64,000 nucleotides of DNA, from positions 58,074,946 through 58,138,945 of the forward strand of contig NC_092646.1 in NCBI RefSeq assembly GCF_039555335.1. The letters run 5' to 3'. This stretch comes from Amphiura filiformis (taxonomy: Eukaryota). Shown in pieces: positions 11,513-56,200 of the stretch (within the stretch, counting starts at the first letter, position 1; each line of letters begins with the position of its first letter). Both the position numbers and the translations under genes were made by a program. The notes under the pieces are model-generated. The model was not told the origin of the DNA and did not search any database. It was given only the letters and a program-made list of their open reading frames with translations.

Positions 11513-11725
11513 CCATCATGCGTACACATTGTCAGTGAAGACTGAACCCACCGGTAGGACGTATTTCAACACTGAATGATCTACCCAGGTTAGATAAGAT
11601 GTTAAAAAAGAACTAAAGGCTAAACAATCTGAAAGCTGCAAGCTAGCAATCACCGTCCATGGGAGAATTTGATTGACATGATTGTCGATGCAAACTAGTT
11701 TTTTCTGTCTGTGATTATACCCTAC

Positions 11726-11912
11726 CTGTTCCAAATACAACAATATTGAAGACCCAATCATCAGGCAAGTGATGCAAGGCTAACAAAGCAATCTTCTTGG
11801 CTTCTCTTAAACTCTCCCCTCTCATTGAATTGGATAGGTCCAACATGAAAATGACCTCTGACCTCCCTTCAGTGTTTGCTTCAAATTCTGGGTAGAAGGT
11901 TAACATGCATGC
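11726..11912 (-). CDS. PARP4: PARP4-like exon: start of the vWA domain (ACMLTFYPEFEANTEGRSEVIFMLDLSNSMRGESLREAKKIALLALHHLPDDWVFNIVVFGTG)
   Basis: Acceptor ttctcttctttacag|GCATGC and donor ACAG|gtaggg. The MIDAS motif D-L-S-N-S-M is present. The reading frame is continuous with the preceding exon. Confidence 0.85.
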
Positions 11913-12132
11913 CTGTAAAGAAGAGAAATGTTTATAAATGAAGTCCAACAATTTTGAACACAATTATTATCCATCACCTTTAATAGGAGGATCTACTTGT
12001 GTACGAGGCTAGCCTTATTATGAAAAAGAAATTGTTGCTTGCTAACATCACCAAACTTTACATGAAATCTAGCGGCTGACAGCAACTGATGAGCTCCCCA
12101 CTGGCTCTGCAAGTTATCTTTGCTTTGCTTAC

Positions 12133-12355
12133 CTGACTATCTTTCTTAGATGGGTGGCGCTCTACCCACATACGAGGTACATGAATCTCTGCCAATCCAA
12201 TCTGAAGCTGAAAGCCATCGTCCAACCTGGTGCAACCATCAGCCAATGCTACTGTAGCTTTGCTTGCTGTGCGCTTGATTCTGATTGGATGCGTGGGTGA
12301 CTCCAGAGTTCGAATGTCATAGGGCATCTCTATAGCAACCTCCACTGACAGATTG
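12133..12355 (-). CDS. PARP4: PARP4-like exon: C-terminal half of the VIT domain (..NLSVEVAIEMPYDIRTLESPTHPIRIKR...GFQLQIGLAEIHVPRMWVERHPSKKDSQ)
   Basis: Acceptor ttttcctacag and donor CAG|gtaagc. It begins in phase 2, consistent with the preceding exon ending in GG. Confidence 0.8.
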
Positions 12356-12494
12356 CTGTAGGAAAAGGAGAAGTCAAAAAAGAAAAAAATGAGTCTTTCA
12401 TCGTAGTAGACCGGGAGTTTGGGATGTGGAAGAGCATCTGGTGTTGCCTCTGGTAGGTGTTTCTAATGGCTTAGCTGGGTTTGAGGAATGCCGA

Positions 12495-12610
12495 TCAGCC
12501 CATCTTGACTGTCCTCAGGTCGTTCTGAGTAACCTCTGACATGGCTGCATCATTCTTCCAAGGAGCTGCAGTCCCAGGTAGACCAAACACTAGATTACAT
12601 CTTTTAAGGT
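12495..12610 (-). pseudogene. Intronic degenerate duplicate of the 3' half of the VIT exon at 13738-13943 (..LVFGLPGTAAPWKNDAAMSEVTQNDLRTVKMG*)
   Basis: About 32 residues are a paralogous copy of IVFGLPGSVAPWKKDTALSEVTQTDLKTVKIDKEMKG. It ends in a stop codon and has no GT donor. Confidence 0.55.
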
Positions 12611-12814
12611 CAGTTACCCCAAGACAGAGAAACAAAATAAAACACATCCAAAGTGTTATATTCCTTGCCACACTACTCAGCCATTGAAAACGGTCGAGAT
12701 TTATTTTTGTATATTCATCAAAAACATGCATACACAATTCACAATTTAATTAATATGAATAGCAAAGGCTAAAGGCTTCAATTCAGCAAAAACAATCATA
12801 AAATTATTCGGCAT

Positions 12815-13140
12815 TTATGCAAAAGCAAAAGTCTGGATGCGAGGTACTCCACGATATCGGAAAGCGAGATACTTTAAGCAAAAGCTGAAAAGCTGGATGT
12901 GAAATACCCCTTATATCTGAAAGCGAGATACTTTAAGCAAAAGCTGAAAAGCTGGATGTGAAATACCCCTATATCTGAAAGCGAGATACTTTAAGCAAAA
13001 ATGAAAAGCTGGAATGTGACTTACTCCAAGATATCGAAAAGCAAGGTACTTTAAGCAAAAGCTGAAAAGCTGGATGTGAGTTACACCATATAGCTGAAAG
13101 AGAGATACTTTGGAAGCAAATGAGAAAATTATAGCTGAAG
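12815..13140. repeat. Tandem repeat with a unit of about 60 bp, about 5 copies
   Basis: gcaaaagctgaaaagctggatgtgaaatacccc..tatctgaaagcgagatactttaa is repeated head to tail. Confidence 0.85.
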
Positions 13141-13737
13141 CCTTTAGCATATTTTAATTATAATATTTAATATTTTTTGCTGTTGACTGGAGCCCGCGAG
13201 AGATTCCCGAGCTTCCTTGCGGAAAAGTTCCTTAAGAAAATTTCAAAATCAAAAGAATTATTACATTTTTCTTTGACATTGTACATATAAAGCCATTATT
13301 TTATATAATTAATATCAAATTGCACTCCCACCCACAACCCACCTCTAATCTGGACCACTTTGCAACTCGTGCGAACCCTGCAAAGTGAGAAAGAGCAAAA
13401 ACCAGAATTTTTGGGGATGGTGGGTGGGTAAATAAAAATTATTTACGACCGTCCTCAATGATGGCTGATTGTGTTGTGATTTGGCTATGGCTCCCAACGC
13501 AACCGGATAAACAACCAAGCCTGCCCTGATTGGCCAAACCCGACAAGAACACAATGGATGCTTTATGCAAATGAAACATGTGATGACCCGCGGTCATTTA
13601 ACATGTCCTTTCACGAACGCCCCTGGATGCAGGCATGGAAGCACCCATTTCTCTGCGGGGGCAAATTTTGATTCTTCATGATTGATCACATTCAGAATCT
13701 TTATTATTTATCATATGTACATTACATCTAAGCTTAC

Positions 13738-13943
13738 CCTTTCATTTCTTTGTCTATCTTGACTGTCTTCAGGTCTGTTTGAGTAACCTCTGATAGCGCT
13801 GTATCTTTCTTCCAAGGAGCAACACTGCCTGGTAGACCAAATACAATTGTATCTCCATCTACAGATAACTCTGCCATGTAAACTATCTTGATCACTACAG
13901 TTGTCATTGGGGGAAGGTTTCCTACACTCACTGTGAACACATC
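13738..13943 (-). CDS. PARP4: PARP4-like exon: central VIT domain (DVFTVSVGNLPPMTTVVIKIVYMAELSVDGDTIVFGLPGSVAPWKKDTALSEVTQTDLKTVKIDKEMK)
   Basis: Acceptor ttgcag|GATGTG and donor GG|gtaagc. The phases match both neighbouring exons. Confidence 0.85.
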
Positions 13944-13949
13944 CTGCAA

Positions 13950-14013
13950 GGAGATACAATACAGTTTTCTTTAGGGGAAGGTTACTTACACTCACTGTGT
14001 ACACATCCTGCAT
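13950..14013. repeat. Local duplicate of about 65 bp of the acceptor and first codons of the exon at 13738-13943
   Basis: ggaaggttacttacactcactgtgtacacatcctgcatag closely matches ggaaggtttcctacactcactgtgaacacatcctgcaag. Confidence 0.6.
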
Positions 14014-15027
14014 AGAGAAACAATTTCTGTGACTACCTCTGCGCTACATCCTTCACTGCACAAGATCCCCATTAGGCCCCCTTAATTAAATTTTGTGTCT
14101 CAAAGCTTGTCAGAAATTGGAAACCTAATGCGGAACACAATTTGTTTCTTCATCTATTTTTTATGTGTCAGTATAGGCTTTGGTACAAGCATTATGTCTG
14201 TTCCAAATATTTGAATAGTAGTCAAATAAAGTCACTGCTACAAAATAACCACATGAAAATACAGAATGATAATCTAAAACTTGAAATCAAATAGGAATTT
14301 TGGATTTTTATATTCACCTTTTGTTAAAAAAAGACAAAAAAATATGAATTTCTTGATTTTCAAAGAAGATTTTACTAACACGGTGCAGCAGCTTTGAGAC
14401 AGAGGTTTTTATTATCAGTGGTCTTAGACCTATAATAGGGTGGGATAAATACTAGGAAATTTACACAGCCCAAATAAAGGAATCCCTTCTCCTCAGGGGA
14501 TAAACAAGTAATCAAAAACAAAAGTAATCAAATGTCTGTGGCTATTATAGTGTATACGCTGATTTTCGCTGTGGTTTTATTTTCACAAATTTCGCAGATT
14601 AATATGTGCCCGCTAAAATAACAACCCGCGAGTATGTTAAAATGAAGAAATTTCTTATGTATATTATTATATAAGTTGCCAACAACCGTGAATTTAACAC
14701 CTCGTGAAATTGTCAGTGATACTTGAAACCGCAAAAATATCTGTAGCCGAAAATATTGGCCTATACACAGTACAGTAGTTGATGTACACACCCCACCCAC
14801 ACACTATTCAATCTGTTAGACAATTTAAAATGGAAACCTTTCATTTTACATGACAAGAGGCACACTTCACTTAATGATATCATATCGGTCCCTTGCCGGT
14901 GGTGCACGGAAACGAACAAAAACAATTCTGCATCTCATCTGAAGCACAATAGCCATCGTGTGCAGGACGTGTGAAATGCATCTCTCAAATGCTTCTAGTA
15001 TGCAATTTTGCACTCATATGACAAAGA

Positions 15028-15400
15028 TTGTGTCAAGTGCTTTCCAAAGTAAACCAAAATATACCCCCATGGGCTATACCAATTAAAATCCACACTACCC
15101 CTACAAGATTTTGGAATATCTTACACAGGGGGTTGGAAATATCTTCCATAGGGGGAGTACAAATTTCAAATGTTATTAGTGGCATTAACCTCTGTTTGAA
15201 CCTCACCTTCCCTCTGTGCAAGATTCATGTTCAATCTTTCTCGGAGGGTATATGAAATTCAAATGGAGCTGCTTAATGTATTTATTCCATTTGAAAGTCA
15301 TACTCCCCCTGTGGGAGATACATGTATTTCCAAAATCTTCCACAGGGGTAATGTGGATTTTAAATGGACGAGCCCAATTTGTGCTCCATACGTATATCAA
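15028..15400. repeat. Cluster of truncated MITE-A fragments in both orientations
   Basis: Several ccatacacccc..gggagtgtagatttcaaatgg motifs. The six-frame track translates these as the recurring (H)TP..ED and FKWN peptides. Confidence 0.6.
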
Positions 15401-15456
15401 GATGGCGGTTGAGTCTGTGTTACCTGGTTTTAATTGTGTGGTATTCCCCTACTTAC

Positions 15457-15675
15457 TGGTGTTTCTTCATCCATAAGATAAGCTCCATGTCCCTTGCTGA
15501 TTGCTTCTTTGTATTCCTTGTGGGCTGTTTCTTTGTCTTTCACTTCCCCTATGATATGCTTGTCATTAATGAAGGCTTCAAATCCACACACTGCTGCCAT
15601 ATCATCCAGGGGGAACACATACTTAGCTTCTATCGGGTCATTGTTTTCATTGGTGTACACTTGGAAGACTACAAC
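15457..15675 (-). CDS. PARP4: PARP4-like exon: start of the VIT domain (VVVFQVYTNENNDPIEAKYVFPLDDMAAVCGFEAFINDKHIIGEVKDKETAHKEYKEAISKGHGAYLMDEETP)
   Basis: Acceptor cgttag|GTTGTAG and donor CCA|gtaagt. The VIT signature YVFPLDD..AAV.GFEAFIN is present. Confidence 0.9.
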
Positions 15676-15780
15676 CTAACGATGAAACAAACAATAATTA
15701 ATGAAAGGAAGAAAGGGATAAAATTAAAGGAAGAAGAGAATGTGAAAGAGCAGGAAGAAGATGTGAAATGAGATGAAAGG

Positions 15781-15963
15781 ACTAATGGGCTATTCCAGTT
15801 GAAATCCATACACCCCCTGTGGGAGACATCATAAACTCCCACACAGGGGGTGTAGATTTCAAATGGAATCCCCCATTCAGGTAACCCTATTAAAATTCAC
15901 ACTCCCCAACTGGAAGATTAAGGTCATAGTCTTCCATAGGGGGTGTATGGATTTCAACTGAAA
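15781..15963. mobile_element. MITE family A, full palindromic copy of about 185 bp
   Basis: TIR gggctattccagttgaaatccatacaccccc and its inverted counterpart gggggtgtatggatttcaactgaaatatccca. Confidence 0.8.
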
Positions 15964-17129
15964 TATCCCATAAGCAGTGTTGCCAAAACTTTTCAGCGTC
16001 AAGGCGCGGCGCATTGACTCGCCAGGCCGCGGTAAAGGAATCTCAAGTAGCCCAATTTTTTAAGCTTCCAAAAAAGCGCCCAATACCGGATATTTGGGCA
16101 GATTTACCCGAAGTTAGAACGCAAAACACCCAATTGGGTGGACAAGCACTTGACTTTTAAACTTCCGGTAATTACTAGGAAGTTACTGACCGATCAATAA
16201 CTTGTCACAAAACCCATTGTAATTGCAATTTGGAGCTTTAGAGACTCAAAACCTTTATAAATCGGCTAAACTGAAAGGAAAATACATCAAATTAGTGCCG
16301 CGGCCTGACACTGGCAAAAGTAGCCCAATTTTAGGCAAGTAGCAGCATGCTTTTTTGAGTAGCGGCAAGTGATCGCCAAGTAGCCCAATTGTGCGCCTAA
16401 GGACAGTTTTTGCAGTTTTGGGACACTTTGCCCTCTGACCTATTGGGAAAATTCAGAAAAATTGGTTTTTGTGTTTACAAAATATAATCTAAAATGTTTT
16501 ACAAGAATAAAATCAAACCCAAAAAATATTATTATTAAATAAATTAATTATTTAAATATTTTTAATGATATCATTATGAAAATAATAAATTAATTAATAC
16601 TAATTACAGCAATTTCTCGATATGTCAGAGGTCAAAGTGTCCCAAAACTGCTCTCAAAAACTGGAAGTTATAATGGCGATTGGGCTTATTGCTGGGTCAG
16701 TCAAGGAATGAATATCATTCAGTAATATTAAAATTAGAGATAATACTTTCATGTTAATGCTCTGTATGCCATAGACTTCAACGTAAAAATTCCCAGTTTT
16801 GAGATATTTTCTCAAAATATCAAGAGCTATCTTAAGAACCATAGATTTCAAAGTAAAAATTCCCAGGCATGACAATATACAATTCTTAAATTTTGAATTT
16901 TTAAATTTAAACAATTTTTGGAGTCGACACTCGCCATGAGAGAATTAAATAGAATTTATCAGCTTAATTTTGACACATAACATTTCAAAATTGATCAACG
17001 ATTTGATAACTGAAAATAAGTCATAAATTCTTTTTCTTTTTGTTCCTTATTTTGTCATGTATTATTTTTTCCATATCTTGAAAATCAGTGGGCTGCAAAA
17101 AAATTAAAGTACACCCATTTGATGTGATT

Positions 17130-17755
17130 GGTTACATACACTAAGCCAAAAAAGAAACTTATAATTTTTCACAAGGTCATATCTTAAAATCCTCTCCATA
17201 AAAATGAACAAAAATTGCACACAGGATTACTTCAATACTCTACTCTAAACACTGGTCAGTAACCAAACAGTTGTCCAACTGACACAACAGCAAAATACAC
17301 TGACATGCAACACCTTCCTGGACCACATTCACAGCGCAACAGATTTCTTTGGCTGGGTTCCAACAATTTTTAAGCCTGTACATGAACAAAAATTACACAC
17401 AGGATTACTTCAATACTCTATTCTAAACACATGTCAGTAACCAAGCAGTTGTCCAACTGTCACAACAGTAAAATACACTGACACGGAACAGCTTCCAGGA
17501 TCACATTCACAGGCGAATAATTGGAACCCAGCCAAAGAAATCTGTTGCGCTGTGAATGTGGTCCAGGAAGGTGTTCGTGTCAGTGCATTTTACTGTTGTG
17601 TCAGTTGGACAACTGCATAGTTAGTGACATGTGTTTAGAGTAGAGTATTGAGGCAATCCTGTGTGTAATTTTGGTTAATTTTGATAGACAGGATTTTAAG
17701 ATATGACCTTGTGAAAAATTATAAGTTTCTTTTTTGGCTTAGTGTGTTAATGAAT
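17130..17755. repeat. Foldback structure built from units of about 190 bp (two direct copies, then one inverted copy) with inverted flanks
   Basis: 17190-17345 is similar to 17375-17520. 17520-17680 is the reverse complement. The flanks ctaagccaaaaaagaaacttataatttttcacaaggtcatatcttaaaatc (17140) and gattttaagatatgaccttgtgaaaaattataagtttcttttttggcttag (17695) are inverted. The same unit recurs at 57150-57360. Confidence 0.7.
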
Positions 17756-17756
17756 G

Positions 17757-17942
17757 GCCTACTCCATTTGAAATCTATACACCCCTTTTGAAGACATACC
17801 TTAATCTTCAACACAGGGAGTCTGAATTTCCATTGGGCTTACGCGAATGGGTGACTCCATTTGAAATCTATCCTCCCTGTGTGGGAGATTACTGTCACGT
17901 CTTCCACAGAGGGTGTATGGATTTCAACTTGAATAGCCCAAT
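17757..17942. mobile_element. MITE family A copy; abuts the 135-bp tandem array
   Basis: ggcctactccatttgaaatctatacaccc ... gggtgtatggatttcaacttgaatagccca. Confidence 0.7.
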
Positions 17943-17949
17943 AACTCAC

Positions 17950-18485
17950 CTCTGCAGCCAAGTCCAGTAACTTAGCCCTGACATGGACAGCTTTCAGTGG
18001 TACTGGTTGGTCACTATTAGACAATAGACCAGCTTGGACTTTGGACAGTGGATCAGTAATGGACTGCACATCATTGATACTTACCTCTGCAGCCAAGTCC
18101 AGTAATTTAGCCCTGACATGGACAGCTTTCAGTGGTACTGGTTGGTCACTATTAGACAATAGACCAGCTTGGACTTTGGACAGTGGGTCAGTAATGGACT
18201 GCACATCATTGATACTTACCTCTGCAGCCAAGTCCAGTAACTTAGCCCTGACATGGACAGCTTTCAGTGGTACTGGTTGGTCACTATTAGACAATAGACC
18301 AGCTTGGACTTTGGACAGTGGATCAGTAATGGACTGCACATCATTGATACTTACCTCTGCAGCCAAGTCCAGTAATTTAGCCCTGACATGGACAGCTTTC
18401 AGTGGCACTGGTTGATCACTATTAGACAATAGACCAGCTTGGACTTTGGACAGTGGGTCAGTAATGGACTGCACATCATTCAGAT
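17950..18485 (-). repeat. PARP4: In-frame tandem array: 135-bp unit x about 4.7, made of the PARP4-like linker exon plus its GTAAGT donor; A and B variants alternate
   Basis: Period is 135 bp exactly (ctttcagtgg at 17991, 18126, 18261). The minus-strand ORF is open across all copies and reads (QSITDPLSKVQAGLLSNSDQPVPLKAVHVRAKLLDLAAEVSINDV)n. Each copy contains GCAGAG|GTAAGT; the last copy has GCAGAG|GTGAGT. Confidence 0.85.
18355..18485 (-). CDS. PARP4: PARP4-like linker exon (minimal, single-copy form): D-LNDVQSITDPLSKVQAGLLSNSDQPVPLKAVHVRAKLLDLAAE, ending at the first GTAAGT donor
   Basis: Acceptor aaatttcag|AT. Phase 1 pairs with the exon at 22558-22729, which ends in phase 1. The donor is in phase 0 and pairs with the acceptor at 15675. 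Donors at 18220, 18085 and 17950 are equally in-frame alternatives. Confidence 0.6.
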
Positions 18486-18540
18486 CTGAAATTTAATGTG
18501 GTTGAGATGTGTTACATTATTGTATGACTTTGACTGGAAA

Positions 18541-18640
18541 TTACACAGGGGGGTGTAGATTTCAAATGGAGTCACCTGTTCTGGTAAAATTCACACCCCC
18601 TGTGTAAGAGGGGGTAACTGGAAACTGTAGGATTTGAACT
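18541..18640. mobile_element. MITE family A internal fragment
   Basis: ggggtgtagatttcaaatggagtcacc...ttcacaccccctgtgt. Confidence 0.5.
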
Positions 18641-19397
18641 GGAACAGGCCCTTCGTAGCCTGGCGTACATGTAGGATGTGGTACCGTCGTACATGTAGGA
18701 TGTGGTACTAGTGCACGTCAAAAACCTGGGAATTTTCTAATTTTGGAGCTTTAACTCATATTTCGATCTTCATCATTTATGCCGCCGAAACGCTCAAGGT
18801 CTCTTATAAGTTCATCTGATACATTACCAGAACTATCTAGGACTGATGAATTGCTCAAATTTGATCAAGTCACCATGTGATCACCACCAAATTCACCCAG
18901 CCACGTACCTAATGTGGTAGATACGCTACAACAGGCACATGCAGTTTACAAAGTGATGGTCAATTGCTGGACACGCCGCTGGTCATCTTGGTATGCACTA
19001 CGACTTGAAGCATATGACAGACATCTTGCTTAAATTAGACAACATTCTTATTCAATGGGTGCGTCTTGTAAAGAATTCACGTAATTTGATTGGTTTTCTA
19101 GTGTATAATATCTCACAATAGTTGATAGTGATATTAGTCAGGCGTGCGCCGCCCGCGCAATGCGGCATGCACGCTTGTTGCTCCTCAATGATCGTAGCGA
19201 TAATGCGTTTGCGTAATACGTGCGAGAACTAAAACGCGATTCGGCGGCTTAGATGTTCGTGATGCTTTCCTTCATTTAAAACAACGGGGATGTCCTCAGA
19301 AAAGTAACTTTATTTTTTTCTGAAAAAGGCAGTTTTTCTCTTTGCCTATCCAATATCGTGTCATAATGGATGGGCTGGGGAATATTTTTATCGTAGT

Positions 19398-20110
19398 GTG
19401 CGCCGGCATCCACTACTCAAAATATTGGCCAGCCAATCCATTATGACACGATATTGGATAGGCAAAAGACAAAATCCTATCATTTATTCCCTAAAGGTCA
19501 CAACTGGATTTATCATGATCGAGACTCAATTGGGTTCCCTCCAGGCTGCTTCATTGAAACAAGTGACTGAAGATGCAAATTATCTAAAATCAGCAGTTAA
19601 AATCTTGGAGGGAGATTTAAATCAAGTCAAGCAAAGCGTGATTCCAAATCTCAAAATGGAACTGAAAGGAAAAATAAAAGCACTTGAACAGAGTTGACTA
19701 GAAGCCAAACTTTATAGCAAGAAATCCAACTTGCTTTTCTTTGACATTCCCTCATGTTGGAGAAAACTTGCGTAGTCAACTAGAAGCCGCAATGCCATAT
19801 ACAAAAAAACATCATCTTCATGAATGTACATCGATTACCGACCAAGTCTACCATAGCTGACAAGCCCAAGCCGATTATTGCAAAATTTTTGTGCATGGTA
19901 GACAGAAACAGGGTGATAAACTTCAAACCAGAAAAATCAGGAAAGAAACTAAGCATTGCTCCACATTTACCACCGTCCATGCAGGCTGAACGTCAGAGAC
20001 TTATTGCTATCAGGAACCAACTCATCGCAGATAGAAGACCAGCCAAGATTAAGGTGACCGGTACAAAAGTGCATATTGTGGTAAATAGTGCCATCTACAC
20101 AGAATAGATT
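19398..20110 (+). pseudogene. Degenerate non-LTR retrotransposon ORF1 (L1-ORF1/Transposase_22-like) with a coiled-coil region and an RNA-binding C-terminus, broken by stop codons
   Basis: ORF1-type motifs: a coiled-coil (LKSAVKILEGDLNQVKQSV..LKGKIKALEQ), then ..SKKSNLLFFDIPS.., then HRLPTK...KPKPIIAKFL...NFKPE...LSIAPHLPPSMQAERQRLIAIRNQL. It lies inside a PARP4-like intron. Confidence 0.55.
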
Positions 20111-20257
20111 AGTAGGTTCAAATTTGTTGCCAAGCCCATCGTATTTCAATACTGACCTCGCCAGTAATACCATCAGAAGACAAGGTCCTCTTTTATAGAG
20201 CCAAATCCCAAAACATATCTGTGATTTAACATCAATCAGTTCTTTCAAAACCCAGTA

Positions 20258-20655
20258 TAATAATAATAATAAATTTTGGATTTATATTAAAAGCGCCTTT
20301 CTCCAGATCTTAGAGGACTTAAAGCGCTGTAATTTCGCTGCAATGGTGAATCATCACAATCAGATCGCATCAACTAGGCCAGTTGCTGCGCACACCTATC
20401 CGCATTTAGATTGTAACATCCACCAATTATCTGTGCAGCTCCCCAAATTCCATTGGGTGAAGGAAGTTTTTGATAACCAAACAAGTAATCACCAATTTTT
20501 GCGATACAGGAGGAAACCGGAGATCCCGGAGAAAACCTGCGATAGCGAGCATGGAATCGGGATAAACCAAGTGCACATGAGTCCTTTGGCTGCGCCGGGG
20601 CTTGAACCCGGGACCTCAGTGGTGCAAGGCGAGGGAACTACCGCTGCGCCAACTC
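20258..20655 (-). mobile_element. tRNA-derived SINE with a Deu-domain-like core and an (ATT)n tail
   Basis: On the minus strand it starts ggagttggcgcagcggtagtt...ggtcccgggttcaagccccggc, which is a tRNA head. It continues ttctccgggatctccggtttcctcc and ends gcgctttaagtcctctaagatctggagaaaggcgctttt + (att)5. Confidence 0.65.
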
Positions 20656-41150: not shown

Positions 41151-44100
41151 ATAAGGGGTACTACACCCCTGCCCAATTTTGTGCCTATTTTTGCATTTTG
41201 CTCAAAAAATTATAGCGCATTGGGGACAAGTAAGATATGTAGTAGGCAAGGACTACAACCACTGCACTGGAAATTTTATTTCAGCACAGACAACAGTTGT
41301 GGAGTTACAGACAAAAATGAGGGAAGGGAGATCAAATCACTTTATTATCAAAATACATATAAAACCATTGAACAATAAAGGAAAACAATAAGCCCAGGAC
41401 AGATCGTATAAAAGATCATGCAGGGCGGACAAATACAGTATAAAAGCATGTAAGCACAAGAAATAGCAATATTGAAAGACATAAAAAGATATAAGATTTC
41501 ATTATTTATCACATTATGCACTGAGCATAGTAAATGACAAAAGAGGCAATGATGGACAATTTGGAAACCTTGTCGCGAATTCCTTGAAACAAATCGGGAG
41601 TGAACTAAAGAAGTGAATGATTTGAGCCTGTCAGCATTATCTTGCGAAATGAAACCTCTCGAGCCAACTTCAACACCTAATGTAAGTAACCTCGAAATCA
41701 TTTTCCTGAATATCAGAAATAAGAGGCGATACTTATTGAGCTTCAACTGATGGGCCCTGTCAATACCATGCTCAAAGGAACGGTCAGTTCCACAATCAAT
41801 AGTTTCCTTCGATTCTTCCAAAGAATTACCAGATCAGGTTTGAGGTTGGTTGGAGAACATTCAGTAGGAATGGTAGTGACACCGGCAAAACCAGCTTCAC
41901 CTGGAATGTCATGAAAATGGTTGCATCCGAATCTTTGAGGCCAGCTCGTATGCGACAGATATAAAATATTTCAGAACACTATTATGACGGTAAGTATAAC
42001 GACCTTGGTCCAGAAAGACTTTACAGTTATTTAGAACATGATTGAGAGTCTCTTTGTTGCAGCAATGTAAACATTTGTTGGAAACAGATTTACCCCACCT
42101 AGCAAGGTTGACCCTTGTGTTCAGAGAGTCGCCAAGGGCGTTAACCAAAAATTTGCTGACTCTCGAAGGAAGATTGAAAATGATGCTACGCCAGAGAGTG
42201 CAGGAAGATTCTTTGGAAAGGAGATCATAAAAACGTCCTTGCACTGCAAGAGAACGAACATGATTATGCCAAAATTCAGAAATTGAATGGGTCAACGTTT
42301 TCTTGGCGGAATTCTTCTGAATGGTAACCTTGTTTGACTTTTCCCCAACTGCTTAAAATATTTCTTCACTCCTGACAGTCACTGATTTCTTCCGAGTCCA
42401 TTTTCGCTCTCTATCCAATTTGGAATCAATGCAGTGGCTAACAAGCTCATCACTTTTATTTCTAATTGAAATATGTGTCATCACATGACTCTCAAGATAG
42501 AGATCAGAAATGGATCGAATATTGAGCCCATTAGGCATGAAAATAAAGGCAAGGGTGCCGGGTTTTGGAATACCAAACCATTTTTTCAAATGACGATTGC
42601 ACATAGCGCCCAGCGCTTGGAGATGAGAAAAGCAGAGATCATTGACTGTCAAATGGTAGCGTAAAGAGGGAAGAAAGTATCTTGTGTAAACTTGAATCTT
42701 ATATTCATTTGAATAACAGAAGTTTCGATATTTTCCAGGGCGGAAGAAATTTTGTCCTTGAGGTATTCAAAATATCCGAGGAATTGTTGCGAAAAGTAAT
42801 GAGGGAACCAAGAAATTTGTGAGAATCATTTTCAACGGTTGGGACCTCAACGCCTGCAATGTCGAAAAGAATGGAAGTGGGGAGCCTGCAGAAAGGGATA
42901 ACGATCTGCATTTGGAAGGCTTTAATTTGAGACCCATTGAAGAACAATGGTCGGTGATGCGGTTAATGAAACGTTGATGGGTTTTCTTATGTCTTGTGAT
43001 CAGGCAAAAATCATCAGCAAATGGGGTGGTGATGAATTTGGTACCACTGAGATCGTAACCAAAATTGGAATTGGCGATGAGGTCTTGAACAATAGGATCA
43101 AAGCAGAAGATAAAAATTAACCGTGAAAGAGTGTCTCCCTAGAAAATACCTTTCTTAAACTGAAATTGATTCAAGTCCAGTCCTTTGAGGAAACTCTACC
43201 AGTGAGAGATGAATAAAGATTGTTAATGTACAGTTGAATACAGGGAGGGAAATTTAATCTCTTCAGAGTGTGATAGATAAGCTCATGTTGAACACTACCG
43301 AAGGCGTCTTCTAAGTCAAACCAGGTAGCATGAACAGTCTTAGAGTTAGCTTTAGCATGACTTAAAATTTCATGGACAATTGTATTATGATCAGTACAAC
43401 CACTAATGCCTTTCAAGAAAGCTTTTTGAAACAAGTATAATGTCAATAAGATTGTTAGAAATAACAAATTTCTCAAATCTTTCGGCAAGCACTTGGTGAT
43501 AGAGTTTTCCAATAACGCTGACAAGAGCAATCATGCGGAAATTAGATGGATTGTCAGTATCACCTTTTTTGTGGATCAGCACAATTTTACTTGATGTCCA
43601 TGATGATGGTGGAGATGGAAAATGTAACAGTTTGCTAAAAAGAGTTGCCATAAAATGATGCGTACAGGGAAGTTTCTTAATCATCCCATACATTAGGCCG
43701 TCCGGACCGGGCAGATTTAGAACTTTTTTCATAACAATTTTTCTTATGTCGGATGGTCTGACTGGGTCTAAATTGAAATTGAATAAAGTCTCTGGCTCGG
43801 TAACAGGTGGAAACCAATTCATTTCGTCATAGTTGAGTGGCGTTAGACAATTCATAGCGATCTGTATAGAACTGGTCAGCTGATTCTTTAGAAAATGATG
43901 GCCAGTTACTATCACCATAGAGTGACCCGTTGACTAGTCTTTTAGCAAAGTCCCAGAAGTTTGATTTAAAATGTCTCTCCTCCCGGGCACAAGTTCTTTC
44001 AGAATCCTTAGCTTTTTCTTGTTTACGAAGAGTATCATATGTGTGAAGGGCGTCATAAAATAGTTTTTATCATCAGCAGTGGCATTTTTTCTGAAAGCCT

Positions 44101-44392
44101 TTTTGCTAATTTGTTTTTTTTTGACCGTCTAACTTCATCAAGTGTTTTAGCAGTTCGTTTAATAAATTGTTTCTTATCCGGAACTTTAAAATCAGGTAAC
44201 TCGGAAAAGAATTCTTGTAAAATGCGGGTAAATATTTGATCAATAAATCAATAACTACTTGCTTTGAGTCCTTGCCTCTATAATATGTACATATCTTACT
44301 TGTCACCAATGTGCTCATAATTTTTGAGAAAAATGCAAAAATGGGCACAAAATTGGCCACGGGTGCAGTACCCCCTTAATACCGCAAGTACG
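41151..44392. mobile_element. MITE family C copy split by a roughly 3-kb LINE insertion; termini at 41151-41240 and 44275-44392
   Basis: aagggggtactacacccctgcccaattttgtgcctatttttgcattttgctcaaaaaattatagcgcattggggacaagtaagat. Its inverted mate is at 44283-44390. An intact palindromic family member lies at 51276-51735. Confidence 0.55.
41240..44275 (-). mobile_element. Degenerate non-LTR retrotransposon (CR1/L2-like) ORF2: RT domain plus a C-terminal CCHC finger, split by frameshifts
   Basis: Minus-strand ORFs carry PGPDGLMYGMIKKL, SKIVLIHKKGDTDNPSNFRMIALVSV, DLEDAFGSVQHELI and a C-terminal finger KCLHCCNKETLNHVLNNC. The pieces are in different frames. Confidence 0.7.
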
Positions 44393-50400: not shown

Positions 50401-50478
<78 letters not shown>

Positions 50479-50500
50479 GCTGTTGTTGTTATTGTTTTGT
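50401..50500. repeat. (ATT)26 microsatellite followed by a (GTT)n microsatellite
   Basis: A perfect att run at 50401-50478, then gctgttgttgttattgttttgttgttgtt. Confidence 0.95.
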
Positions 50501-50599
50501 TGTTGTTATTTCATTTAGAACTCAGCGAGATGGGTTTATTTCCAATTTCTTTGTCAATATGTTTTTACCTGTAACTCAAATCTATAAAATCGCGTTTAC

Positions 50600-53550
50600 A
50601 CTGCCTATATAATTCGTTGTCACGGATTGCTATGAAGTATAAACCGATACCCAGTGCCGTGTGTTGCTATTCATCGAGTATCGAGTTTCGAGTTTCGAGT
50701 TTGAGTTTCGAGTTCGAGTTTCGAGTTTCGAGTTACAAATTTCGAGTTTCGAGTTTCGAGTTCGAGTATCGAGTTTCGAGTTCGAGTTTCGAGTTTCGAG
50801 TTACAAATTTCGAGTTTCGAGTTACTAATTTCGAGTTTCGAGTTAGGTTTTTCGAGTTTCGAGTTAAGAATTTCGAGTTTCGAGTTAAGAATTTCGAGTT
50901 TCGAGTTAGAATTTTCGAGTTTCGAGTTAAGATTTTCGAGTTTCGAGTTAGGATTTTCGAGTTAGGTTTTCAGAGGTTTTTAGTAAAAATGTAATAAAAT
51001 CAGAAACTAGTTGAACATTATAAACAATGTTAAACGAACACGGAAAGTAGAACGGTAGTATTCAAAATAATACACACTAGACTTGGCGAAATAATAAAAG
51101 TCTTATTCGGTGTAACTTTTATGAGATAAATTTGACAGAATGTTAAAAGACAATTTAGCGCAGAGCTACGAGAAACCAAGGAAGTGCCAATATTTAAGGG
51201 AAAACATGCATGGATCTTATAAATTTTGTGATGTACGACGAGTAGGCCCTATATTAATTAAATAATCATTTAAGGTGGTACTACACCTCTGACAAATTTT
51301 GTGACTAATTATTTATCTATTTATTTCTTATTTAACCTGGGGTAACCAATCAATGCACTGGCACTTTTCTCCCCTGGTTCCCAATTTTGCAGTGTTCTCA
51401 AAAAATAACTACACATTGGTAACAAAAGTTATGTATATTATAGGGGCAAGAAATTCCACTAGGCCCTACTTCACTGGAATTTCAGTGATTTAAAACAAGT
51501 CGTTCATTAGAAGAAATGAGGTACATTCTAGTAGTACATCTTTATCTTATAGTGGTACCTCTTTTCTTCTTATATATAACGTACCCTTGAGTCACTGAAA
51601 TTCCAGTGTAGAAACTGGATTCCTTGCCCCTATAATACACATAACATTTTGTTACCAGTGTGTTATTATTATTTTTTTGACAAAAATGCAAAAAATAGTC
51701 CAAAATTTATCAAGGGGTGTAGTACCCCCTTAAAGTTACATATTTTAATTTTTTAAATTGACCTAAATACTTAATAATTGTAAATTTAAACTTATGATCT
51801 CAACACAAAATTAAGACGTACCTCAAATACTGGTGATATATATTCATATATATTTAGTGAAGTATGTCAAACATCGATCGGATGAATTGATATTTCGGTC
51901 GAAAATTATATAATTCCTCGAATGTCAAGTGAGTGTTGAATTGAGCCTTCACCCAAACGCCCTCGCTGGTTTTTGGCGAGGGGGAAGGAAAGAAGGCAGG
52001 AAGAAAAAAAGAAGAAGAGGATAAAACTTTTTTCTCGGGTGCGGTTTCGAACCACCGACCCCTCGGGCGCCAGACATTGCTACGGGGTGTAGCTTTGTCG
52101 ACCAAGCTTTCCGTGACCATATGACTGTTCGCATGATGACACAATCACATCACGTGGGATACCTGCCTGTGCCTATGCTTTGTGAACTGTGGTTTTGTGA
52201 TGTTTGGTACGGTTATTTCACGTTTAAATGTTGAATTTAGTAGTAATGATGTTTCATCCATAATTTTCAATTTCAAATGAACAAAATATGACTCTTCTTG
52301 CAATCCGTTGACTTAAATCAGAATGTAATGAGATTTTATGAAAAATATTTTACTTCCCAACGTCTATACGTGATATGGGAAAATAAATACCTCTCTTCTG
52401 GGAAATAATAACTTAACTCGATATTTTGACATTTTCGAGTTATAACTCGAAAATGTCAAAATATCGAGTTAAGTTATTATGTCTCTGAAGAGAGGTACTT
52501 GTTTCCCCAGATCACGTATAGACGTAGGGAAGTAAAATACTCTTAATGAAACCTCATTTACCTAATAAGAGTCAAAGGATAGCAAGAGGAGTTACATTTG
52601 CCCCAGATCACGTATAGTCGTTGGTAAGCAAAATACTCTTAAAGCCAAAATGTACGATTAACCAATTTCATATTATAAGATCGTACATTATGGCTTTAAT
52701 AATTCTCATTTACATTATGATTTGAACTCGATATTTTGACTTGTCAAAAATATCGAGTTAGGTTTGTTATCAATCCTAGTGCCAAGATATTTATATGAAG
52801 ACACTCGCTCCACCTTACTACCCTTCACGACTATAGGGCTTGAATATAACTCTTATTATAAGTAAAAATATAATGTCATTTGATGAAGGCACAATTCAAC
52901 ACTAACACTTAATTGATATTCGAGGAATATTTGTATATTTTTGACCGAATTATCAATTCATCCGATCGATGTTTGACATACTTCACCAAATATAGCCACA
53001 AGCATTTAGGTAAATTCAAAAAATCAGAATATGTAACTTTAAATGATTTTTAAAACAATATACTCGTCGTATATACCACAAAATTTCATTTATAAGATCC
53101 ATGCATTTTCCCCTTAAATATTGGCACTTCCTTGGTTTCTTGTAGCTCTGCACTAATTTGTGTTTTAACATTCCGTCAATTTTATCTCATAAAAGTTAAA
53201 ACCGAATAAGACTTTTGATATTTCGCCAAGTCTAGCGTGTATTATTTTGAATACTACCGTTCTACTTTCCGTTCAACTATTGTTTGTAATTTTATTTATT
53301 AAACTCGAAAATTCGAACTCGAAACTCGAAATTCTTAACTCGAAACTCGAAATTCTTAACTCGAAACTCGAAATTTGTAACTCGAAACTCGAAATTTGTA
53401 ACTCCAAACTCGAAATTTGTAACTCGAAACTCGAAATTGTAACTCGAAACTCGAACTCGAAACTCGATACTCGAAACTCGAAACTCGATACTCGAAACTC
53501 GAAACTCGAAACTCGATGAATAGCAACACACCCCAGTGCCTATAGGGTAA
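50600..53550. mobile_element. Foldback-like element about 2.95 kb long; its long inverted termini are made of a tcgagtt(t)cgag minisatellite
   Basis: The left arm, 50617-51260, is the reverse complement of the right arm, 53040-53545. The tandem (tcgagtttcgagtt)n at 50672-50975 is mirrored by (ctcgaaactcgaa)n at 53290-53520. The outer ends ccagtgccgtgtgttgctattcatcgag and ctcgatgaatagcaacacaccccagtgcc match in inverted orientation. The interior holds further nested palindromes centred near 52440. Confidence 0.8.
51276..51735. mobile_element. Intact palindromic copy of MITE family C, nested in the left half of the foldback element
   Basis: ggtggtactacacctctgacaaattttgtgactaatt at 51276. The inverted end caaggggtgtagtaccccctt at 51712. 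Confidence 0.65.
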
Positions 53551-54539
53551 ACACAGAATTGTGGTCAAATGTCATCAAAGGGCCACTTCCGGGCCATAGC
53601 CAAATACCTTTAAAATGCTACTGCGTCCACAAATTATATAGTACAAATAAGCCACTCGCACATATGCATCGGCTAGAGCCAATATCTATTATATTGTCAT
53701 TTAGGTGTCATTTTCGGTATGGGACCAAGAAAAAACCGCGATGTTCTATTTTTTTTAAATGCTACTCCTTCCACATACATAGCAGGAATACTAGTCTCCT
53801 ACACAGCCAGTTTGCGTCGGTCTGACACTCGTCGATCCTCCTTCGTGATAGCCACATACAGTCTGGCCCGAGACTACACGATGACGTTACTTCACGACAT
53901 TTGGTCAACTTTGGTCACAATGGCTCAAAGCGTATGGCTACGATGGCTCTTAATTTGATTGACAGAAACAACGCGGCAAAACCAAACCTCAGCAAATGCT
54001 GCACGTTGGCTAAGGAACGACACAAAAACATTGCAAACAGTTTTGTGCGGCATGCCGCTTCAAGAAGTTAGGCTTGAGTTAAGACTCGGGCTTTGAGAGC
54101 GAGCTAGGCTTAATTTAGTAGCCTCAAGGTCATCTTAAGCATCGAGCGATTCAGAAGTGATTCCTACCCTAACGTACAAAGAAACATTAGAGACTTTGCG
54201 AAATGAAGTTTGAAAATTTACTTTAAATGGAACGGCAACTTCAGAAATATCGATTGGATTTCTTGCTCAAATTTACTCCAACGCGAACGTATGGTTGGTT
54301 ACTGCAACAACTCGGGACACGTGTATCAATGTGCGTTCAAAAGAAGGGCATGTGTAAGAACTTGCAACCGACTACATCAAAATGTCTCTCTTTTGTATAG
54401 TCAAGTGGTTATTAGTCCCACTTCAAGACAAAAGACGCTACCTTAAGAGCTTCGTTTGAGTAAACACGAATGAACTCGCGATACCACTCAACATGGATTA
54501 TGTCGGGACCCAGCGTTAATCTCCTTATCATATTATTTT

Positions 54540-56200
54540 GAAACTAGCTATAGACGAATCCAAGTTTCATGCCCATCCAACAGTTTTTACTAATTTGACC
54601 TCAAATGACCCCTCATGACCCCGAGATGACCTTCCAAAAATTTGGCTCTAAATGTTGACTGTAACCAGGTTTCATGCCCATACGACAGTTTTTACTAATT
54701 TGACCTCATATGACCCCTGTTAACTCTGGGTGACCCCCAAAATAACCTTCCAAAAACATGTCTTTAAATGTTGACTGTACCCACCAAGCTTCATGACCAT
54801 ACATAAGTTTTATTAATTTGACCTCAAATGACCCCTGGTGACTCCAAAATGACCTCCCAAAAAATTTGGCTCTAAATGTTGACTGTACACACCAAGTTTC
54901 ATGCCAATACGGCAGTTTTTGGTAATTTGACCTCAGATGAGCCCTGGATGACCTCGGGTGATCTTGACCCTTAAACTTGTTCTGCCTGGGGTCAAGATGC
55001 ACCCACCCACCAAGTTTGAGGTACATGCGACCCCTAGTCTCCGAATAAAGCGGCGGACAAATAGACAGACAGACACCCACCCAGACATACTCACGCAAGT
55101 ATACTTGTGTGTCTGTATTATATGTCTTGTGTGACTTTTCTTGTGTGTCTTTTTGACCCGACGGACACGTGATGGACGCCTGACGGACATCTTCTGTGTC
55201 TTTTTTTTCCATCTTTTTTTTTGTCACTGGTTGTTGCTTATGTGCCTTTGCAATACCTTTAAAAATGATATATATGCCCCCTCTATACCCCCCAGCAACA
55301 TCTTTCTTGCGTGCCTAGACACACAGGAAAAAATCAACACATAAGCATTTTTGTACTGAAAAAGACACACAAGCATAGCCTCTTGAGAACAAGCAACAGA
55401 TTCTGGTGAATTATACTAAGATTAGGCAATTACCAGTATTTGGCGGTTCTCGGCTGGGCACGATTACCTGGCTGATGGTGACTGTGCCCACCAAGTTTTA
55501 TGCCCATCAGACAGTTTTTACTAATTTGACCTCAGATGACCCCTGGTGACACCGAAATGAAATTTCCCAAAATTTGGCTCTAAATGGTGACTGTACCCAC
55601 CAAACTTCATGCCCATCCGACAGTTTTTACTAAGTTGACCTCAGATGACCCCTGGTGACCCCGAAATGAACTTCCAAAAATTTGGCTCTAAATGTTGACC
55701 GTACTCACCAAGTTTCATGTCATTTGACCTCAGATGATCCCTGCGTAACATCGGATGACCACGAAATGACCTTCAAAAATGTTGACTCTAAATGTTGACA
55801 GTGCCCACCAAGTTTCAAGTCCATACGACAGTTTTTAGTAATTTTTAGTAACTTGACCTTCGATGACCTCTGGGTGACCATCGATGACCCTAAAATGACC
55901 TTTCAAAAATTTGGCTCTAAACGGTGACTGTGCCCAGCAAATTTCATGGCCATACGACAGTTTTTGCTTTTGCTAATTTGACCTCAGATGACCCCTGGAT
56001 GACCAACTAACCAATACAAACTTGTTCTGTCTGGGGGTCAAGATGCATCCACCCACCAAGTTTGAGGAACATGCGACCCCTAGTTACCGAGAAAAGAGAC
56101 GGACAGACAAACATACAAATGGACAAACAGACAAACACATGATTCCGGTGGATTATAGTAAGATTTATAGACCCTATGTGGGGTGTTTCTTTTTTCTTCC
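54540..56200. repeat. Tandem segmental duplication of about 940 bp (54540-55470 and 55480-56200); each copy has 4-5 subrepeats of about 105-119 bp plus a unique tail
   Basis: Subunit: gtttcatgcccat.cgacagtttttactaatttgacctcagatgacccctggtgaccccgaaatgaccttccaaaaatttggctctaaatgttgactgtacccaccaa. Both copies end cttgttctg.ctgggg.tcaagatgca.ccacccaccaagtttgagg.acatgcgacccctagt. Confidence 0.85.

Follow-up and report, generated by a model that had tools for sequence, protein, structure and literature searches.

The element and its insertion site

The DNA considered here is a stretch of 64,000 nucleotides (64 kb) of contig NC_092646.1 from Amphiura filiformis (hereafter, the window), animal-like genomic DNA with a GC content of about 0.37, and unprefixed coordinates refer to it throughout. 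Positions 50659-53531 are occupied by a foldback element of 2,873 bp, whose two ends share one layout in inverse orientation: from a 15-nt tip, each continues through TCGAGTT repeats (the outer domain) into unique sequence (the inner domain), with a non-coding middle segment of 922 bp between the two arms so formed (Table 1). These long terminal inverted repeats (TIRs) account for much of the element's length, 1,298 and 653 of its 2,873 bp, and the left one carries a nested miniature inverted-repeat transposable element (MITE).

The inverted repeat ends outermost at G50659 and C53531, and directly adjoining both ends lies the 9-mer CCCAGTGCC, a perfect (9/9) direct repeat for which the chance of a match is about 4^-9, its positions being fixed by the inverted-repeat end. 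Since the same 9-mer stands directly at both outer ends, a single insertion event that duplicated 9 bp of target is indicated, and the repeat is a target-site duplication (TSD). The insertion site has the context ...aaccgata on the left, then CCCAGTGCC, then tataggg... on the right, and the pre-insertion (empty) site is predicted to have read ...gaagtataaaccgataCCCAGTGCCtatagggtaaacacag... A paralogous empty site for the element was not found within the window; as to the orthologous locus, the contig of a related genome (assembly ERZ25070167, see below) would stop some 13 kb before the insertion site is reached, and its introns cannot be aligned. Immediately inside the TSD, the 21-nt tip sequence GTGTGTTGCTATTCATCGAGT occupies 50659-50679 and recurs, reverse-complemented and with 0 mismatches, at 53511-53531. 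Folded as single-stranded DNA (ssDNA), 50659-53531 reaches -846 kcal/mol, compared with -252 +/- 9 for 7 shuffles, and 584 of the 1,120 predicted base pairs connect both arms, the outermost being 50659:53531. Long TIRs, their construction from short tandem repeats, and a TSD flanking the whole unit are among the defining marks of foldback transposons, and all three are present here. The interval 50659-53531 is very probably a single cut-and-paste DNA transposon, foldback in structure and non-autonomous.

Architecture of the arms

The two heptamer arrays, 332 and 242 bp in length and thus unequal between the arms, hold about 55 TCGAG cores in all, with 30 exact heptamers in forward and 21 in reverse orientation; outside the element, the remaining 61 kb of the window contain a single exact copy. 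Each array has an outer zone of plain heptamers, interspersed with some 6-mers and TCGAGTA variants, and an inner zone of 21-bp units consisting of two conserved heptamers and a 7-nt A/T-rich spacer (ACAAATT, AAGAATT), with a core-to-core spacing that switches between 7 and 14.

That the inverted arms are real, far beyond chance, is confirmed by several alignments. A repeat finder recovered inverted pairings of 210 nt at 90%, 92 nt at 92%, 81 nt at 91%, and 58 nt at 95% identity; the best blastn match between the arms extended over 460 nt (84%, E = 3e-117); and a global alignment of 50560-52000 with the reverse complement of 52850-53600 gave 614/664 identities, from the outer ends through 51956/52879. 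Outside the arrays, identity is 367/401 (91.5%), the arms being collinear for some 400 nt of unique sequence inward of the arrays. The left arm (50659-51956) measures 1,298 bp, or 838 bp without the MITE insertion, and the right arm (52879-53531) 653 bp, a difference that is mostly accounted for by a 460-bp insertion, a 60-bp indel (51773-51832 in the left arm relative to the right) and the unequal arrays.

These results uphold the core of a preliminary description of this DNA, which had proposed a foldback-type element with terminal inverted repeats built from a 7-bp-motif minisatellite, carrying more than 20 tcgagtt(t)cgag units, together with unique subterminal segments matching in inverted orientation. 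It had also suggested a search for short duplications at the termini and a fold analysis, and these yielded, respectively, the perfect 9-bp repeat and a structure closing exactly at the two ends. The element was correctly recognised, its ends now being placed at 50659 and 53531 rather than at about 50600 and 53550; likewise, its arms are indeed long, with the lengths given above in place of the approximately 650 and 500 bp first estimated. The possibility raised there that the arms might be two independent satellite arrays fails on their collinearity through the unique sequence.

Table 1. Features of the foldback element and of its nested insertion (window coordinates; array periods and copy numbers from Tandem Repeats Finder; TSD, target-site duplication; MITE, miniature inverted-repeat transposable element)
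Feature	Position	Strand	Remarks
Left TSD copy, CCCAGTGCC	50650-50658	.	Same as 53532-53540; abuts first base of inverted repeat
Left terminal tip, GTGTGTTGCTATTCA, 15-nt non-repeat end	50659-50673	+	With first TCGAGT, perfect 21-nt terminal inverted repeat
Left outer domain, TCGAGTT array	50674-50963	+	Period 7, 42 copies; 32 TCGAG cores, 7/14 spacing
Left inner unique domain, part 1	50964-51269	+	Pairs with 53043-53300 at about 91-92%
Nested palindromic MITE, 456 bp (51274-51729)	51270-51733	.	TTAA at 51270-51273 and 51730-51733
Left inner unique domain, part 2	51734-51956	+	Pairs with 52879-53038; 51847-51904 versus 52939-52996, 53/58
Middle segment, 922 bp	51957-52878	.	Not inverted-repeated as a whole; no Pfam domain
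B-box-like 11-mer, GGTTCGAAACC	52043-52053	-	Sole remnant supporting a tRNA-like origin
Imperfect palindrome, 316 bp	52284-52599	.	blastn self-match 83.75%; perfect 38+38-nt core at 52405-52480
Mini-hairpin AACTCGA-N21-TCGAGTT	52725-52759	.	78-81% identical to modules of the 585-bp satellite of L001-type elements
Right inner unique domain	52879-53300	-	Collinear with left inner domain; MITE-empty site at about 53043-53062
Right outer domain, AACTCGA array (inverse of left)	53301-53516	-	Period 7, 31 copies; also period 42 at 88%; 23 cores
Right terminal tip, reverse complement of GTGTGTTGCTATTCA	53517-53531	-	Outermost ssDNA-fold pair 50659:53531
Right TSD copy, CCCAGTGCC	53532-53540	.	Same as 50650-50658

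A nested MITE and the order of events

The MITE in the left arm has ends that pair over 33-47 nt at 85-88% identity and an ssDNA fold with z = -14.3, and the right arm runs uninterrupted across the corresponding point (aatcatTTAAagttacat), where it preserves the paralogous empty site aatcatTTAAagttac. With its TTAA duplication, its TIRs, the absence of coding sequence and this empty site, 51274-51729 would qualify as a TTAA-specific (piggyBac-like) MITE, in keeping with the intact nested MITE of the preliminary description. A TTAA-flanked MITE in the left arm and an empty site in the right imply that the arms were already in place when the MITE inserted, and also that they are homologous copies of one sequence. 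Elsewhere in the window, ends related to this MITE (71-85% identity) occur at 41152-41275 and 44266-44379, inverted around a stretch at 41.3-44 kb that bears a long interspersed nuclear element (LINE) with reverse transcriptase (RT) sequence; they may derive from a single MITE copy into which a LINE inserted, or belong to a larger element related to the MITE.

The middle segment

The two outer portions of the middle segment, 51957-52283 and the reverse complement of 52600-52878, align with a score no better than that of shuffled sequences. As these halves are unrelated, the element has a true middle segment, and the alternative that all of it is a single palindrome broken by insertions was rejected. 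Between the two portions lies an imperfect palindrome (ssDNA fold -103 kcal/mol, z = -23.8) whose 76-nt core contains two AACTCGA-N13-TCGAGTT inverted heptamer pairs. The exact heptamer is found six times in the middle segment, always in inverted pairs, with N13 twice and N21 once.

The perfect hairpin that had been reported at 52380-52500 is perfect only over 52405-52480, within the imperfect palindrome. The absence of a transposase noted previously also holds, since Pfam detected no domain (E<=0.1) in the six-frame translation of 50950-53310, and no THAP domain was found in the six-frame Pfam search of the element; on this evidence, the element is probably non-autonomous. The tRNA-like fragment that had been placed at 52020-52105 found no support, as ARAGORN predicted 0 genes there and Rfam gave no tRNA either at the gathering score or at E<=10, which leaves the B-box-like 11-mer.

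Relatives in other assemblies

Because the tip and array are open in all reading frames, their translations could be used to query a collection of 5.8 billion proteins, and the DNA of the corresponding contigs was then fetched from ENA. This led to related elements on contigs from five other assemblies; within the window itself there is no second copy. The array open reading frame (ORF) of the window and ten ORFs flanking the element have no exact record in the public protein collection.

The closest set comes from ERZ25070167, where five contigs (L001, L127-L130) open at an identical tip, GTGTGTTACTTTTCTTCGAGT, that matches the window tip at 18/21 positions. Their arrays are alike and their left flanks all different. 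Inward, these copies pass from about 250 bp of array through about 800 bp of unique sequence into kilobases of a 585-bp satellite (L001:9612-11760; L127:11003-14982 and 18292-20306), which occurs in both orientations within L127; the inverted recurrence there marks L127 as a giant foldback. This satellite is composed of AACTCGA-N21-TCGAGTT modules resembling the window mini-hairpin (Table 1), and may have been seeded by a foldback element, as satellite DNA is reported to have been in the case of Tetris (PMC4079207).

The same assembly holds an orthologue of a VIT/VWA gene of the window (on L131, with VIT and VWA Pfam matches). Between the two, the protein of one exon differs by 1 residue and exons share 86-89% nucleotide identity, whereas introns cannot be aligned. 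Tip and array have thus been kept in two related species whose neutral DNA has diverged beyond alignment, an argument that the ends are under constraint or that activity was shared recently.

A third lineage is represented by L132 (ERZ26050812), with the tip GTGTGTTGCTTTTTTTCGAG, and a more distant tip type, GAGGGTTTCTTTTTTTCGAGT, by L002-L005. The latter loci, L002 (ERZ25084522), L003 and L004 (ERZ25069866) and L005 (ERZ25069870), have in common the left tip GAGGGTTTCTTTT(T/C)TTCGAGT, and L002 and L004 share a distinct right tip, GAGGTTTAC... One of them, L004:10100-19509, is a complete element of 9.4 kb with a 9-bp duplication, AACAAAGAA, on both sides. In sum, L001, L127-L130 and L132 have tips homologous to the left tip of the window, and L002-L005 have more distant homologues of it; all arrays have the 7/14 core spacing of the 21-bp unit, and at every locus the arrays are co-oriented with the tips. 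A profile of the 36-nt end gave full-length matches at element ends only; the rest of the window and 121 loci obtained by DNA scans yielded none. At L005:10009-10120, two GAGGGTTTCTTTTCTTCGAGT tips lie 74 bp apart in the same orientation, either as a tandem duplication of the end or as one element inserted into the array of another.

Microsatellites lie beside or close to some copies. Runs of (AAT)n directly abut two of the five ERZ25070167 copies, at different loci (L127:9800-10000; L129:3650-3857), and an (ATT)26 plus (TTG)n microsatellite lies at 50401-50507, about 150 bp to the left of the window element. The adjacency could reflect a target preference, as in MuTAnT, a Mutator-like element (MULE) that targets TA microsatellites (PMC4486113), or else be coincidence.

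The DNA scan of JGI metagenomes was made with the pattern TCGAGTTTCGAGTT-N7-TCGAGTTTCGAGTT, in which N7 also admits pure heptamer arrays. The matches listed were mostly on high-GC, prokaryote-like contigs, and none of them had the tip; a scan of IMG/VR gave one irrelevant match. Pure (TCGAGTT)n arrays of at least 5 units were present in at least 120 metagenome contigs (L006-L125), most of them prokaryote-looking with GC 0.5-0.7. They often stood at contig ends, and the transposon tip was absent among the matches listed; the Desulfonema magnum protein P0002 was grouped with them. These arrays appear to be unrelated to the element. On two low-GC metagenome contigs (L013:1940-2060 and L043:2230-2540), ACTCGAA units and TCGAGT/GATCGAG units face each other in small hairpins, which may be miniature elements related to the heptamer foldbacks.

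Taking these loci together, we raise the possibility, less likely than not, that they belong to a foldback family, not yet described, with a wide distribution among the genomes of aquatic invertebrates. It would be characterised by the end G-N-G-N-GTT-N-CT-N-TT-NN-TCGAGT followed by 21-bp two-heptamer units, with ends kept where introns no longer align, and would range from 2.9 kb to giants of >10 kb with 585-bp satellites of inverted-pair heptamers, mobilised by an enzyme of a new MULE clade or of another superfamily whose DNA-binding domain reads the heptamer. For some species, the family may already be catalogued in Repbase or Dfam.

A putative transposase and a possible mechanism

The enzyme family responsible for mobilising the element is, on balance, most likely Mutator-like (MULE/Phantom). 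The ground for this is the TSD, which is about 9 bp (8-11) in the Mutator superfamily and exactly 9 bp in each of the two complete elements from which its length is known, the window copy and L004. There is precedent: most foldback elements are considered to be members of Mutator, Tetris having been placed there on its 8-10-bp TSDs alone (PMC4079207), and in Tm1 a Phantom-type MULE transposase lies between foldback-like TIRs of 14-bp repeats flanked by 9-bp TSDs (PMC3169594).

In the course of events read from the sequence, the entire unit inserted at once, duplicating 9 bp of target; a TTAA-targeting MITE later entered the left arm, and the arms then drifted to about 8-8.5% divergence, with indels arising and the arrays coming to differ in length. 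As to the proposed mechanism, a transposase acting in trans would recognise the tip, might bind the heptamers, and would cut the target with a 9-bp stagger. Pairs of heptamers every 21 bp, equivalent to two helical turns, would present themselves on one face of the DNA and could thereby offer many cooperative binding sites. The heptamers are regarded as putative transposase binding sites because the subterminal repeats of Muta1 and the TIR repeats of Galileo act in this way. Raising the number of subterminal repeats in Muta1, classed as a "type 2 foldback" MULE, increases transposase binding, donor cleavage and excision (PMC5499845), and in Galileo sites for the THAP domain are located within the tandem repeats of the TIRs (PMC3688188). 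Were the transposase to be found, TCGAGTT pairs every 21 bp would constitute a clean system for testing the recruitment of an enzyme by subterminal repeats.

Several observations weigh against these interpretations. A second copy with exactly these ends was not seen, in a view limited to 64 kb of the source genome. The flanks of one related element, L002:8188-19217, agree at only 5/9 positions, which makes its TSD ambiguous. The inner domains and the middle segment are not common to the copies in related species, so that only three features mark membership in the family: tip, array and heptamer hairpin modules. An autonomous Mutator element would encode a MULE DDE transposase, with or without FLYWCH, between such TIRs. 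A transposase was not found in the six-frame Pfam search of the element, among the ORFs of the window, or, for L001-L005 and L127-L130, among ORFs with a minimum length of 110-120 aa, a search that spanned about a dozen related loci, several of them truncated, and that turned up LINE remnants (zf-RVT) only, none inside any foldback. As no transposase came to light, the superfamily is read from TSD length alone, and Merlin elements also give TSDs of 8-9 bp. Finally, binding of a protein to the heptamers is argued by analogy.

Alternative explanations

Mobilisation by an enzyme from outside Mutator, such as Merlin (8-9-bp TSD), hAT (8 bp), a P or Galileo-like transposase (7-8 bp) or an undescribed one, is possible, though we consider it less likely. 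It gains from the failure to find a transposase in the element, in the ORFs of the window or in those of the related loci, from the fact that only two complete elements supply the TSD length, and from the emergence of foldback architecture in more than one superfamily, as seen for Galileo in P (PMC3688188) and as likewise discussed for Tm1 (PMC3169594). On the other hand, both complete elements have exactly 9 bp, a length that is typical of MULEs and off for hAT and P, and most described foldbacks are placed in Mutator (PMC4079207). For the P superfamily in particular, for which a 7-8-bp TSD and a THAP-bearing P transposase would be expected, the 9-bp TSDs of the two complete elements do not agree.

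The remaining alternatives question whether 50659-53531 moved as one transposon at all. Two solo arms might have inserted separately, in opposite orientation, and so come to bracket unrelated host DNA, a composite for which one can adduce the apparently solo arms in related genomes (L005:10009-10222; L132:5820 onwards) and a middle segment unrelated to the arms. Separate insertions would, however, each bring their own duplication, whereas here one 9-mer stands at both outer ends, as expected only if both ends joined one staggered target cut, and we regard the composite as improbable. Still less probable is an immobile local inverted duplication, a palindrome of replication or repair origin in which satellite arrays expanded independently: although large palindromes can form without transposition and the two arrays differ in length, this origin is contradicted by the exact 9-bp direct repeat at the ends, by the conservation of tip and array at dispersed sites with different flanks, and by the co-orientation of arrays and tips at all loci, and would seem to be effectively refuted already. 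The faintest likelihood of all attaches to a functional hairpin-RNA locus, or one derived from a tRNA or short interspersed nuclear element (SINE), to which the strong predicted hairpins and the B-box-like 11-mer would be congenial, but not the absence of a tRNA in ARAGORN and of a family match in Rfam, nor the TIR and TSD anatomy typical of a class II element. A single foldback transposon thus accounts best for the locus.

Comparison with known systems

The architecture is that of a textbook foldback, and the closest elements described are Tm1, Drosophila Foldback (FB) and Tetris. Drosophila FB has long TIRs of short tandem repeats, whose unit grows inward from simple to higher-order, a 9-bp TSD and a variable or absent middle segment, all as here; its repeat sequence and host are different, and it is compared by description, not by sequence. 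Sea urchin TU elements are also close; they are reportedly marine-invertebrate foldbacks with outer tandem-repeat and inner unique domains, heterogeneous middles and nested insertions, and they are said to differ from the present element in having outer repeats of about 15 bp, rather than of 7/21 bp, and an 8-bp rather than a 9-bp TSD. Drosophila Galileo, with 7-bp TSDs and a P-type transposase, is not matched by the 9-bp TSD found here. The likeness to this P-superfamily element lies in long, internally repetitive TIRs, with extra THAP sites as a functional analogy for the heptamers (PMC3688188, PMC3573991).

Tm1 (PMC3169594) shares a composite TIR in which a short terminal motif is followed by short tandem repeats, variable in number and 13-15 bp long in Tm1; it also shares TSDs of 9 bp, a membership that is largely non-coding and is MITE-like or bears hairpins, and a high similarity between the arms of one element, about 93% on average compared with 91.5-92.5% here. 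It differs in that the present repeats are a 7-bp motif in 21-bp units, in that the tips are symmetric as opposed to the asymmetric A1/A2 motifs of Tm1, and in that Tm1-A encodes a Phantom-like MULE transposase, whereas no transposase-encoding member was found in the present family. The likeness is architectural, and similarity to Tm1 in sequence is not claimed. Tetris of Drosophila virilis (PMC4079207) has the same succession of flanking, outer tandem-repeat, inner and middle domains, with 8-10-bp TSDs, and is likewise a non-coding element whose autonomous partner was not found and whose superfamily was deduced from the TSD; unlike the 15-nt tip that directly precedes the 7/21-bp repeats here, its flanking domain consists of 866 bp of non-repeat sequence outside 220-bp repeats. 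Muta1 of Aedes aegypti (PMC5499845, PMC5225508), the experimental model for the proposed mechanism, resembles our element in a TIR made up of a terminal motif and subterminal tandem repeats, but is autonomous and has nine copies of a longer subterminal repeat, as against a non-coding element with 23-32 heptamer cores per arm. What sets the present element apart from all of these is the heptamer in 21-bp units, the symmetric tips, and a family spread over several invertebrate-like assemblies.

Significance and genomic setting

The element is an ordinary, though well preserved, foldback and leaves the current understanding of transposons unchanged. Annotators should mask 50659-53531 as a single complex of nested transposons, a foldback with a MITE inside it, and should not take it for satellite, tRNA relic or gene. 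More broadly, foldback elements give rise to inversions, to deletions and to new satellite DNA, Tetris being the published example (PMC4079207).

Elsewhere, the window contains LINE/RT remnants at 31.9, 41-44 and 58.7 kb, and neither tRNA genes nor Rfam matches were detected across it. Just right of the element, at 54629-55997, are 108-129-bp tandem repeats with matches of 78-89% (several rows of Tandem Repeats Finder output), overlapped by a minus-strand ORF of 173 aa that has no Pfam match. The VIT/VWA-domain gene mentioned above (VWA5A/ITIH-like) lies on the minus strand at 11700-18500, and one of its VIT exons stands in about four tandem copies at 17842-18492, which form an open frame of 217 aa.

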